Below the pieces are notes generated by a model. It did not search any database and was not told where the DNA came from. It worked only from the letters and a program-made list of their open reading frames with translations. Below are positions 57,568-60,375 of a stretch of DNA of 64,000 nt, in pieces. Origin of the DNA: a bacterium (GTDB lineage Bacteria; Zixibacteria; MSB-5A5; WJJR01); assembly GCA_021813505.1 (NCBI GenBank), contig JAKAKI010000040.1, forward strand, positions 56,559 through 120,558. Direction: 5' to 3'. Numbering within the stretch: position 1 is the stretch's first letter; each line of letters starts with the position of its first letter. The position numbers and the translations under genes were made by a program.

Positions 57568-60375
57568 TCAAGGGCCACACGGGCTGATGGGATTCGCACC
57601 GCCGCTGAACGCCGTCGCGATCAGGAAAACCACATCAAAGACGTCGGTAACTCCATTGTCGTCGGCATCGCCACGGGTCCGAGTGCAACTTGCGTCCTGC
57701 GGATCATTATCTCCAGAGAACGCCACGCCAATGGTCGCAATGATGTCGAAGACATCGATAGCGCCATCGCCATTCAGATCTCCCTGCCACGGACAACTAC
57801 AGGGCGAGTAGAACGCGGTGAAGTATCGTGAGGTATCTATGCTGACCGTGATGGAAGGCTGCATGGCGAAATCGACACCGTCGCGTTGCCACTTATTGAA
57901 GAAACTGCCGGATGCCGACGTTGGTGCCTGCAATGTCACCGAAGCTCCCTGGTAGTAGTTCCGTGAGAAGGGTGTGGGGCCGCTCCCGAACCCGTCCTGA
58001 TCAACCAGGCTGACCGTGATCGGGACTCCGTCGGGTGGGTCCATCGAGAACACGATGATATCGAAACATTTGCCCATGGTAACGGATGCGGGCGGGCCGA
58101 CGGGACTGGTGCCGCAGCCGTTTCCCGCACGCAATTCATACGTCCAGGTTCCTGGAGTGGTCTTGATGATCCCCCACATGTTGGCGGCGCCGCAGTTCTG
58201 CCACACACCGCCGTTCTCGCGGATTTCATAGTACTCGGCATTGGGCACGGGATTCCAGCGTACCGCGCACTGCCGATTGACACACAGCGGGCTGGCGGGT
58301 TGGAATGTCAACTGACCTGGTGCGTCAGGGCCGGCGCCGCTCCCCGAGACAGTGATGCTGACCGGCGGGCTGGCGTTGCTGGCGCCACAGGCGTTGATCG
58401 CCCGGACCTCGTAGGTCCAGGTACCTGGAACTGCCTTCATTCCCATCCATAAAGTTATCAACCCCAGGTTTTGCCAGGCGCCTCCGTCTTCCCGAATCTG
58501 ATAATTGTCGGCTCCCGCGACCGGCGCCCAGGCCAGCGAGTATTGGGAGTTTGGGCATACAGCAGTCGGGGGAGTCGGCACTGGCTGCGATGGGGTTCCG
58601 GGGGCATTACTCTCCACGGTGATACTGATCGGTGTGCTTGTTGCTCCGGTTCCGCATCCCGATAGGGGGCGAACTTCGTATGTGTAAGTTCCGCTCACCG
58701 ATTGCATGAATGAGCGAGTTGTATCAGTCCCATTACTCGTCCAGCTCCCGCCATTCTCCCGAATCTCGTATCCGCTCGCGCCGGCGAGCGGGCGCCATGC
58801 GACCAAATACGTCGAGTTGGCGCACACCGGACTTCTTGGCGATGTCCACGGTAGTTGCACGGCCTGGCTGCACGGCAGATACACGGCGGTCATCGTATGA
58901 TTCATGTCTGTGGTGACGAGCACAGACGGACCGCCGGGGTAATCGATTCCATCACGCTGCCATTTGGCGAAGCTGTTGCCGGCGGCGCTTGCCGGCGTCA
59001 CCAAGGCAATGGATTTGTCGGGACTGTAATTCCGCATGAAGGGCGTCGAACCATTGGACTGCCCGTTCGTGTCGGCCGGGCTGACGGAGATGGCGACACC
59101 TGTGTCGGGATTGGCGGAGTTGACGGTCAGATACACATGGAAAGAGTCTGCGGAGGGTTTGATCCCCACGCGCATGTACTCGTACGTCGGGTCACTCCCG
59201 TACAGGCTGTCGATGAAGAACCAGCCGGTCGTCGATCCACCCCATCCGTAGTTGACGTGCATTTGATTGCCGGAGAAGATTCGCCAGCCATCGAGGACGG
59301 GAGCATGAGCGAGAGGATAGATCGCCATCTGCATCGGCCGGCGCGCCTCGCATTCGCTTTGAATGAGATCGAACCACCCCTGCGCCGAGTAATTGCTTCG
59401 GTATTCCAGATGAGTCCCGGCGTCATACCAGAAATACGTCGACCAGACATTAGTCTCGATATAGGCCCCGGAACCGTCACAGCCGTACATCATCTCGTAC
59501 GCGACGCCCAGATCGTAGCTGAGCCCGGACAATGCCTCCTGCTCTGCGGGAGTCCAACTGCCGCTTCCTCTGAGCGGCATATTCGCCCAATCGTACGTGT
59601 GGTTGAACGCCGCACAGAGCTGGGCGGAATTGCTTTGGCCGTGCCAATTGTAGCAGTGGCTGCCAAGTCCCTTGGAAGGCCATTGCCAGTATCGCATGAT
59701 CTGCGAAGCGCCGGTGGCCACACATCCAACCCACGTGCGGGTGCAGCCCCCATCCGGCGGGCACTTGAGATTCCAGGGGTAGCCCTGGCTCCAGGCATTA
59801 CCGCCAAGCAGGATATCCCCACCCGTCATCGGTTGCATGCCGGCCAACTGGACGGCAAATGACTGATCGTCGAGCGTGTAGACGTCCCAGGTGGATGGTG
59901 TGCGCGAGGTCGTCTTCTGGACCGTGACCGCGTTCAGGCTTCCGTACTTGGCGATAAACGTCCGGTCACGTGCGATCAGGATGTCCCGCAGCATCTGGAC
60001 CATGCCGATCGTGTCCTGCACATCAAGATCGCTCTCGTCGGAGTAGGCCATGACGGCCGGGAGGGCGGTGAGATAGGGCACGAGGACAAACCCGGTTGGA
60101 TCGATCGAATACAGAACTCCAAGCGCGGTGTCGCCGGCGGTCAGAACCTGCGAACTCCTGATGAGCGGCGTCACGCTCCCGGCCCAACTGCCCTGCTGGT
60201 TCACCATCGCGGTCAACCAATTGCCGCAGACCTGGTTCATCGCGTTTTGCCCGGCCACCTCGGCGTGAGCGGCACTGGCGATCAGCAATAGCCCAGCCAG
60301 CGCCATGCTCCCAAAGCAAACCAACCCACGACCACGTGACATCCGATGGATGAGTCGACGACCTGAAAGCGACAT
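57568..60375 (-). CDS. Secreted multidomain cysteine peptidase: signal peptide, C10 (streptopain/SpeB-family) domain, two InlB-B-repeat-like modules, three Cys-containing FN3-like repeats, C-terminal dockerin-like EF-hand pair
   Basis: Start at internal ATG 60375 (RBS 'aagagg') before signal 'LVCFGSMALAGLLLIASAAHA'. Catalytic Cys 'TWVGCVATGASQIMRYW' and His 'AHAPVLDGWRI', as in C10. Three ~85-aa repeats with 'Y(E/Q)IRE(N/D)GG.W...GTWTYE(V/L)RA.N.CG'. Two ~90-aa 'TPF.RNY...F.KWQRDG.D' modules. C-terminal 'GDLNGDGAIDVFDI...GDADDNGVTDVFDVVFL' is dockerin-like. Confidence 0.75.
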   Translation of the reverse strand: MSLSGRRLIHRMSRGRGLVCFGSMALAGLLLIASAAHAEVAGQNAMNQVCGNWLTAMVNQQGSWAGSVTPLIRSSQVLTAGDTALGVLYSIDPTGFVLVPYLTALPAVMAYSDESDLDVQDTIGMVQMLRDILIARDRTFIAKYGSLNAVTVQKTTSRTPSTWDVYTLDDQSFAVQLAGMQPMTGGDILLGGNAWSQGYPWNLKCPPDGGCTRTWVGCVATGASQIMRYWQWPSKGLGSHCYNWHGQSNSAQLCAAFNHTYDWANMPLRGSGSWTPAEQEALSGLSYDLGVAYEMMYGCDGSGAYIETNVWSTYFWYDAGTHLEYRSNYSAQGWFDLIQSECEARRPMQMAIYPLAHAPVLDGWRIFSGNQMHVNYGWGGSTTGWFFIDSLYGSDPTYEYMRVGIKPSADSFHVYLTVNSANPDTGVAISVSPADTNGQSNGSTPFMRNYSPDKSIALVTPASAAGNSFAKWQRDGIDYPGGPSVLVTTDMNHTMTAVYLPCSQAVQLPWTSPRSPVCANSTYLVAWRPLAGASGYEIRENGGSWTSNGTDTTRSFMQSVSGTYTYEVRPLSGCGTGATSTPISITVESNAPGTPSQPVPTPPTAVCPNSQYSLAWAPVAGADNYQIREDGGAWQNLGLITLWMGMKAVPGTWTYEVRAINACGASNASPPVSITVSGSGAGPDAPGQLTFQPASPLCVNRQCAVRWNPVPNAEYYEIRENGGVWQNCGAANMWGIIKTTPGTWTYELRAGNGCGTSPVGPPASVTMGKCFDIIVFSMDPPDGVPITVSLVDQDGFGSGPTPFSRNYYQGASVTLQAPTSASGSFFNKWQRDGVDFAMQPSITVSIDTSRYFTAFYSPCSCPWQGDLNGDGAIDVFDIIATIGVAFSGDNDPQDASCTRTRGDADDNGVTDVFDVVFLIATAFSGGANPISPCGP

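Follow-up and report, generated by a model that had tools for sequence, protein, structure and literature searches.

We analysed a stretch of 64,000 nucleotides (the window) of contig JAKAKI010000040.1 (assembly GCA_021813505.1, positions 56,559 to 120,558 of the forward strand), whose minus strand harbors a gene for a predicted secreted cysteine protease of the C10 (streptopain) family that ends in a dockerin-like domain. The best database match of its product is an NCBI entry named 'C10 family peptidase [candidate division Zixibacteria bacterium]' (93% identity over 99% of the query), encoded on a contig of the metagenome-assembled genome (MAG) GCA_016235085.1 (JACRMA01; the sister MAG); on the basis of this identity and of the synteny with that contig, the source was assigned to Zixibacteria. 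The open reading frame (ORF) runs from an ATG at 60375 to a stop codon at 57568-57570 and codes for 935 residues, and these coordinates are exactly those of the initial annotation, which had been made from the sequence alone. The frame stays open upstream as far as a TTG at 60513; the ATG at 60375 was taken as the start because a Shine-Dalgarno-like AAGAGG (60382..60387, minus strand) can be read in the upstream sequence, 6 nt 5' of it. The annotated start of one homologue (P0001) is the equivalent of Met12.

The motifs quoted in the initial annotation were all found, and the modules follow one another in the order that it had described. Residues 1-38 (60262..60375, minus strand; MSLSGRRLIHRMSRGRGLVCFGSMALAGLLLIASAAHA / EV) have by inspection the features of a signal peptide, i.e., a basic n-region, a hydrophobic core, and an AHA-E cleavage motif, in agreement with the secretion that had been proposed; a lipobox Cys is absent, by inspection, from the N-terminus. 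The Peptidase C10 catalytic domain spans residues 195-392 (59200..59793, minus strand), as delimited by Pfam PF01640 and by the PDB matches. The Pfam profile was matched along its whole length (positions 1-194 of 194) on residues 195-386, with E=1.1e-40 and 140.4 bits (cut-off, 26 bits), and the nearest solved structures are those of interpain A (InpA) from Prevotella intermedia (3bba, E=3.5e-28) and streptopain (SpeB) from Streptococcus pyogenes (2uzj, E=7.7e-21), members of MEROPS family C10 whose catalytic domain is homologous to this one over its full length.

In both enzymes, Cys218 (codon 59722..59724, minus strand) aligns with the Cys of GCVAT and His357 (codon 59305..59307, minus strand) with the His of GHAFVIDG, that is, with the positions of SpeB Cys47 and His195 (mature numbering; alignment to 2uzj and 3bba). 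The aligned pairs are VGC218VATGASQIM and GCVATATAQ, AH357APVLDGW and GHAFVIDG, and VNYGWGG and VNWGWGG; the two catalytic motifs quoted earlier are VGCVATGASQIM (residues 216-227) and HAPVLDGW (residues 357-364). The accessory active-site motifs are matched as well, namely the Gln of W-x-Q-x-x-P-(Y/W)-N and the Asn and Trp of N-W-G-W-G-G, the first Trp of the latter being replaced by Tyr376. In a MAFFT alignment, Gln197, Cys218, His357, Asn375, and Trp378 are invariant in 117 out of 117 homologues, and the position of SpeB Trp212 is occupied by Tyr in all of them; Gln197, Asn375, and Trp378 are presumably accessory active-site residues, as in SpeB. According to this invariance and to the alignment with interpain A and streptopain, the protease is predicted to be catalytically competent, and the claim that its Cys and His occupy the catalytic positions is borne out.

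Residues 39-190 (59806..60261, minus strand) represent a putative pro-region (zymogen prodomain), whose position is consistent with such a function and whose similarity to the I69/SpeB prodomain is weak: Pfam Inhibitor_I69 matched it below threshold (E=0.0016, 19.3 bits, cut-off 25), and a profile of 21 pro-region sequences retrieved from the PDB residues 52-121 of the prodomain of the SpeB zymogen (1dki) with E=0.88. The region is conserved in the 117 homologues, and the protease is likely made as a zymogen. Compared with SpeB and InpA, the Zixibacteria enzyme shares the Gln/Cys/His/Asn positions, the N(W/Y)GWGG motif, the predicted signal peptide, and a putative pro-region in the same place, the latter being very divergent; SpeB has no C-terminal extension, whereas the Zixibacteria protease carries 527 additional residues. 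InpA-type enzymes end in a type IX secretion system (T9SS) C-terminal domain rather than in a dockerin. Moreover, SpeB and InpA come from host-associated pathogens, whereas the protease studied here comes from an environmental groundwater lineage.

The C-terminal extension begins with an all-beta module of about 92 residues, A1 (residues 409-502; 58870..59151, minus strand), which is followed by three tandem FN3-like repeats of about 88 residues, by a second copy of the first module, A2 (residues 768-859; 57799..58074, minus strand), and by the dockerin-like domain. The repeats cover residues 502-590 (58606..58872; Cys518 and Cys574), 591-679 (58339..58605; Cys607 and Cys663), and 682-770 (58066..58332; Cys698 and Cys754), all on the minus strand, and each of them contains the motif Y(E/Q)IRE(N/D)GGxW...GT(Y/W)TYE(V/L)R...CG; A1 and A2 contain TPFMRNY...FAKWQRDG and TPFSRNY...FNKWQRDG, respectively. 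A1 and A2 are 46% identical (BLASTP E=1e-26) and the three repeats share 38-45% mutual identity with both Cys kept, so that by sequence comparison the internal repeats are far above chance.

Pfam fn3 (PF00041) matched repeat 1 below threshold (E=0.0084), and the highest-scoring repeat reached 16.7 bits (cut-off, 25); repeats 2 and 3 were delimited by the repeat alignment and by a family profile. This profile, built from 16 copies that the query and the six relatives closest to it contributed and in all of which both Cys are invariant, matched FN3con (4u3h) in the PDB with E=3e-6. Many further chains with FN3 domains were matched too, among them contactin, titin, and a GH31 enzyme (in its C-terminal region). 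On the evidence of this profile, the three repeats with their Cys are FN3 domains, as had been suggested.

The classification of the A modules as InlB-B-like fared less well. They are real duplicates, and 5 out of 18 copies of the family match Pfam PF18998, Flg_new_2 (best E=1.3e-5), with four out of 18 matching PF09479, Flg_new; precomputed PF18998 matches are present in five out of 13 database relatives. A2 itself stays below the Flg_new_2 threshold (E=6.8e-4, 20.0 bits, cut-off 23.6), and A1 has no Pfam match. The 18-copy profile retrieved from the PDB sequences a flagellin at chance level as its sole match. The AlphaFold2 (AF2) model of A1 has nine strands and is all-beta (predicted local distance difference test, pLDDT, 93.8); among PDB structures, the module comes closest to sandwiches of the CnaB, pilin, and SdrD-B types, the scores being weak (E>=0.004; template modelling score, TM-score, normalised to the query, 0.40-0.58), and no InlB entry occurs among its top 50 PDB structure matches. 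Since a genuine InlB B-repeat is itself a beta-grasp that lacks a helix (PMC8900821), the absence of a helix in module A does not contradict an InlB-like fold. From sequence and model, module A appears to be a distant relative of Flg_new_2.

The last 77 residues (859-935; 57571..57801, minus strand) contain GDLNGDGAIDVFD and GDADDNGVTDVFD and form a dockerin-like domain with two segments, each consisting of a Ca loop and a helix, and with four conserved Cys. The two Ca loops, DLNGDGAIDVFD and DADDNGVTDVFD, both have D/N at positions 1, 3, 5, 9, and 12 and are both followed by a predicted helix. Pfam Dockerin_1 (PF00404) gave E=0.046 and 14.4 bits, below its cut-off of 22.9, which the same dockerin variant exceeds in a paralogue (L022, 39.7 bits). 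A profile built from seven close relatives had dockerins as its four top PDB matches (E=0.002-0.12). In the AF2 model (pLDDT 86) the domain has two helices, and the top 34 matches retrieved by Foldseek from the PDB are all dockerins, with probabilities up to 1.00, target-normalised TM-scores mostly of 0.7-0.8, and root-mean-square deviations mostly of 2.5-3.2 A; their E-values are weak (E>=0.0096) because the domain is small. The C-terminal 77 residues are, according to profile and model, a dockerin-fold module predicted to bind Ca2+, and the dockerin-like C-terminus of the initial annotation stands.

The module resembles the type I dockerins of clostridia and ruminococci (1ohz/2ccl Xyn10B, 5lxv) in its duplicated Ca-loop and helix segments and in the D/N residues at the same five positions. 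It differs from them in sequence (16-31% identity), in a linker between the segments that is four residues longer, and in the four invariant Cys (a CxC before loop 1, a third Cys in the linker, and a fourth at the C-terminus); furthermore, the carrier here is a protease and not a glycoside hydrolase.

The initial annotation had regarded dockerin-tagged proteases as unusual outside cellulosomal organisms, and this is contradicted by the homologues. The counts that follow refer to 120 listed homologues of the protease, of which nearly all belong to Zixibacteria or to further uncultured lineages. Precomputed Dockerin_1 matches are present in 36 of them, and a hidden Markov model (HMM) of the query's own dockerin found the domain in 45, nearly always at the C-terminus. 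The exact arrangement of the extension (A, three FN3, A, dockerin) occurs in only six other proteins of a collection of 5.8 billion sequences; this exact cassette is rare, and the combination of C10 head and dockerin is common in the Zixibacteria lineage. The gene itself is an ordinary C10 peptidase, already auto-annotated as such, within a common Zixibacteria architecture.

The cassette is also found behind other catalytic heads: two proteins (P0004 and P0005) carry it on an M64 metallopeptidase, and in a third (P0007) six A modules come after an S8 head. The 527-residue cassette of a protein with a C10 head (P0003) is 71.5% identical to that of P0004, which has the M64 head, and 58.8% identical to that of the query. 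Since it is closer to the M64 protein than to the other C10 protein, the cassette is, to judge from these identities, swapped between protease classes (C10 and M64 heads), as expected of a delivery or anchoring arm.

Precedents for the tagging of peptidases exist in other lineages. A rumen metagenome contig affiliated with Prevotella encodes a C10-dockerin protein (Bensoussan et al. 2017; PMC6487960); according to its description, from which it is known here, it has the same head and tag, being a streptopain precursor/C10 protein whose predicted dockerin was modelled on 2ccl, it belongs to another phylum and habitat, and the A-FN3x3-A cassette is not described. In Candidatus Stygibacter (Cloacimonadota), likewise an uncultured member of the Fibrobacteres-Chlorobi-Bacteroidetes (FCB) group, a cellulosome-like complex for polypeptide degradation has been inferred from S8/C25 peptidases with signal peptides and C-terminal dockerins and from a cohesin scaffoldin (PMC8542988). 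The Zixibacteria set differs in its peptidases (C10, S8, M64, and M36-like instead of S8 and C25), in its dockerin, a Cys-bearing variant mostly below the Pfam threshold, and in the scaffoldin, which has tandem Pfam cohesins in Candidatus Stygibacter, whereas for the Zixibacteria set the window and the related loci searched yielded no cohesin. Members of Zixibacteria occur commonly in sediments and aquifers, and they have been repeatedly implicated in exported-peptidase pools (PMC6365825); no paper in the literature searched connects them with dockerins.

In order to describe the distribution of the tag, GTDB species genomes were scanned with the dockerin variant, which gave 45 loci. The sister MAG has 14 pattern-match loci, corresponding to about 20 distinct ORFs when neighbours are counted, and a second Zixibacteria MAG has at least nine. 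Across the roughly 20 sister-genome genes, the tag is 60-85% identical; it lies at most two residues from the C-terminus in 19 out of the 26 carrier ORFs examined and at most 17 in 23 of them. The carriers include C10, S8 (with Flg_new_2), M64, and M36-like peptidases, together with adhesin-like proteins containing FG-GAP propellers, HYR, Big_9/cadherin, or Laminin_G_3/SdrD_B domains. The tag is not strictly C-terminal, since one protein (L025:4887-6512, +) has it directly after the signal peptide and another (L007:1227-5231, +) has one at each end, the N-terminal one scoring 29.1 bits with Pfam Dockerin_1. That one conserved tag recurs on such a number of secreted proteins speaks for a receptor shared by them.

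The explanation that we favour, with a probability of roughly 0.7, is that the gene codes for a Sec-exported C10 zymogen with a binding cassette and a dockerin, within a dockerin-tagged, protease-rich secretome of Zixibacteria, of which it would be one member since the same tag is present on about 20 proteins of the sister genome. The protease would be exported by Sec as a zymogen, and its pro-region of about 150 residues would be removed after export, presumably by autocatalysis as in SpeB, which would free the papain-like active site formed by Gln197, Cys218, His357, and Asn375. The non-catalytic cassette (A, three presumably disulfide-bearing FN3, A; 527 residues) would most likely serve both as a spacer and as a substrate- or surface-binding arm, and the terminal Ca2+-binding dockerin would most likely anchor the protease to a partner protein located at the cell surface or on a scaffold. 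Its likely role would be the extracellular degradation of proteins feeding amino-acid uptake, the gene being located inside a polar-amino-acid ATP-binding cassette (ABC) transporter cluster and near an S8 peptidase gene. The shared tag on four peptidase classes and the shuffled cassette suggest an organised, surface-tethered degradation of proteins in Zixibacteria; the gene has its own value as a correctly dissected example, and the wider pattern is more useful.

Several points weigh against this explanation. The homology of the pro-region taken alone is statistically non-significant (the E=0.88 given above). In the Pfam check that had been proposed for the protein, Peptidase_C10 scored far above its cut-off, and the dockerin, FN3, and A modules all remained under the gathering thresholds of Dockerin_1, fn3, and Flg_new_2. 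Pfam Cohesin (PF00963) is absent from the 48 larger ORFs of the window, and phmmer with a CipA cohesin, a single-sequence test of low sensitivity, retrieved nothing from the 451 kb formed by the window and the related loci; the CipA Coh2 query was checked to be identical to 1anu/1ohz. The link with the transporter is one of neighbourhood only, with unrelated DinB and TMEM260-like genes intervening. Moreover, the explanation would require a route across the outer membrane, the host being considered a diderm because the window harbors LptF and LptG genes, and the activity, the activation, and the substrate of the protease are predictions from sequence.

The nature of the partner, which the initial annotation had implied to be cohesin-like or a surface-anchoring scaffold, admits different answers. 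It may be a canonical cohesin scaffoldin encoded elsewhere in the genome, in a cellulosome-like complex of the kind proposed for Candidatus Stygibacter, where a cohesin scaffoldin of 3,755 residues accompanies the dockerin-tagged S8/C25 peptidases (PMC8542988), so that a precedent exists within the FCB group; the dockerin fold and the Ca-loop residues match those of clostridial and ruminococcal dockerins. We hold this possibility to be less likely than not: neither the window nor about 130 kb sampled near the dockerin genes in the sister MAG yielded a cohesin, and outside the window the search (single-sequence phmmer) had low sensitivity.

A different candidate for the receptor is an uncharacterised domain of about 180 residues, here called X, which is marked by a pair of near-invariant Cys, by the motif FEIDTTCxNPxNH, and by F-x-K-G-x-I-T-V at its C-terminus. 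In S8 and M64 paralogues and in some of the C10 type, domain X directly precedes the dockerin; other large proteins have it right behind their signal peptide, one protein has it behind an N-terminal dockerin, and it makes up by itself secreted or lipoprotein-like proteins of about 200 residues (examples are P0005, residues 786-966; P0006, residues 448-630; L018:1255-1803; L006, ORF 8000-10231; L009, ORF 5182-7227; P0122; and P0123). When 1.84 billion representatives were scanned with HMMER, X was found in 393 representative clusters. Among the best 150 of these, a dockerin co-occurs with X in 96, and X is directly followed by the dockerin in 59; the first X starts within 60 residues of the N-terminus, just behind the signal peptide, in 121, and two to four full copies are present in 16, including the scaffoldin-like P0137 (X-X-X-X...Doc) and P0142 (Doc-X-Doc-X-Doc-X-Doc).

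Cohesins are distributed in this way in cellulosomal genomes, and an X-Doc dyad would be compatible with part of the pattern as well. The identification of X as a cohesin found no support at the level of sequence: Pfam and PDB phmmer searches gave no match, PDB profiles of five, 10, and 36 sequences were equally null, and hhalign against CipA Coh2 gave probabilities of 0.1-0.4. X is encoded neither in the 64-kb window nor in the C10 protease itself. It is conceivable, and in our estimate distinctly short of even odds, that the dockerin of the protease and of about 20 sister proteins docks on X rather than on a canonical cohesin; if this were true, Zixibacteria would assemble a protease-rich extracellular complex by means of a new dockerin receptor. 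The remaining interest lies in the dockerin-tagged secretome of this phylum, for its size and its bias towards proteases, and in X as a possible non-canonical receptor, and the dockerin together with X or with a cohesin offers a concrete, testable handle.

It is somewhat less probable that the dockerin has no cohesin-type partner and acts as a Ca2+-dependent stabilising or folding cap, as a glycan or envelope binder, or as a secretion or sorting tag comparable to the T9SS-type C-terminal domains that end other C10 homologues. The lack of a detected cohesin in the window and in the related loci is in line with this alternative, the four invariant Cys could staple the dockerin variant into an autonomous fold, and many non-cellulosomal dockerin-like modules reportedly have no known cohesin. 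In the domain lists of the 120 homologues, FlgD_ig (PF13860, 18 proteins) or Por_Secre_tail (PF18962, three proteins) is named where others name a dockerin, which would suggest interchangeable C-terminal modules. What speaks for a common and specific receptor is the single tag of 60-85% identity on about 20 genes of one genome; furthermore, N-terminal and internal dockerins (L025, L006 8000-10231, and P0142) misfit a C-terminal sorting signal. That the protein is mainly an adhesin or surface component, with a C10 domain inactive or only self-processing, is improbable. More than half of it does consist of non-catalytic binding-type modules (FN3 and beta-modules), and other tag carriers are adhesin-like (FG-GAP, HYR, cadherin-like, and Big_9), but the catalytic and oxyanion residues are invariant in the 117 homologues, the entire C10 profile is matched, and the presence of the same cassette on three other peptidase classes points to enzyme delivery.

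Coming back to the favoured explanation of a tethered, secreted protease, the gene belongs to a run of genes on the same strand that code for SBP_bac_3, C10, DinB, a TMEM260-like protein, an ABC permease, an ABC ATPase, and a Peptidase_S8, and the gene order from SBP_bac_3 to S8 is kept in relatives, including the contig of the sister MAG. The SBP_bac_3 gene (60614-61459, minus strand) lies upstream of the C10 gene. The S8 gene (51189-52979, minus strand; E=4e-37) lies about 4.6 kb downstream of it, following the ABC permease and ATPase genes, a position kept in the sister MAG contig (L001); its product is of a secreted type and has no dockerin. According to this neighbourhood, the two secreted peptidases beside a polar-amino-acid transporter would fit the scavenging of proteins. 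The transporter is apparently split, with the permease and ATPase genes at 52885-54317 (minus strand) separated from the SBP_bac_3 gene by the block of C10, DinB, and TMEM260-like genes. The TMEM260-like gene (54428-56533, minus strand), two genes downstream of the C10 gene and after DinB, codes for a protein O-mannosyltransferase homologue; two further membrane glycosyltransferase-like genes of the window, at 24604-26232 and 26254-27861 (both plus strand), are PMT_2 paralogues.

In one relative, the SBP and C10 genes are separated by an inserted gene whose product, of about 1063 residues, has SdrD_B, Laminin_G_3, and dockerin domains (L002:4773-7964, +). The window is without this insertion, and the homologue in the sister MAG is L022:1812-5228 (+), the paralogue whose dockerin variant passes the Pfam threshold; with the local dockerin HMM, it shows a second, internal dockerin-like segment. 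Regex and HMM scans for dockerins in the window found this C10 gene alone.

As for the sequences around the C10 gene, a consensus scan found a terminator-like hairpin 28 nt past the stop codon (57512..57540, minus strand; a 12-bp stem with eight G-C pairs and a weak T tail), and a scan for sigma-70 promoters around the gene gave nothing exceeding shuffled expectation. An antisense ORF of 335 residues inside the gene (58855-59862, plus strand) was rejected as a gene, all the homology being in the sense frame, and was judged to be a by-product of the G+C content of about 60%.

The rest of the window is ordinary chromosome, with genes for glycolysis, MreB, RNase R, LptF/G, a PilB/T/C set, and tRNA synthetases. 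The G+C content is 0.55 at 62001-64000, compared with about 0.59-0.60 elsewhere, and this part includes an ORF of 191 residues (63359-63934, minus strand) without a Pfam match. A DUF5131 protein (phage Gp37/Gp68-type, E=6e-104) is encoded amid housekeeping genes at 28925-29782 (plus strand). A type IV pilus-like cluster at 11166-17119 (plus strand) comprises genes for a PilB-like ATPase with MshEN, a PilT-like ATPase, T2SSF/PilC, and a PilS-like PAS histidine kinase. Finally, near a gene for a tetratricopeptide repeat (TPR) protein, the segments 5570-6796 and 9649-10605 (both plus strand) code for a DUF4388 protein and for a small GTPase of the Ras/Arf-like type, an arrangement that recalls MglA-type polarity modules.

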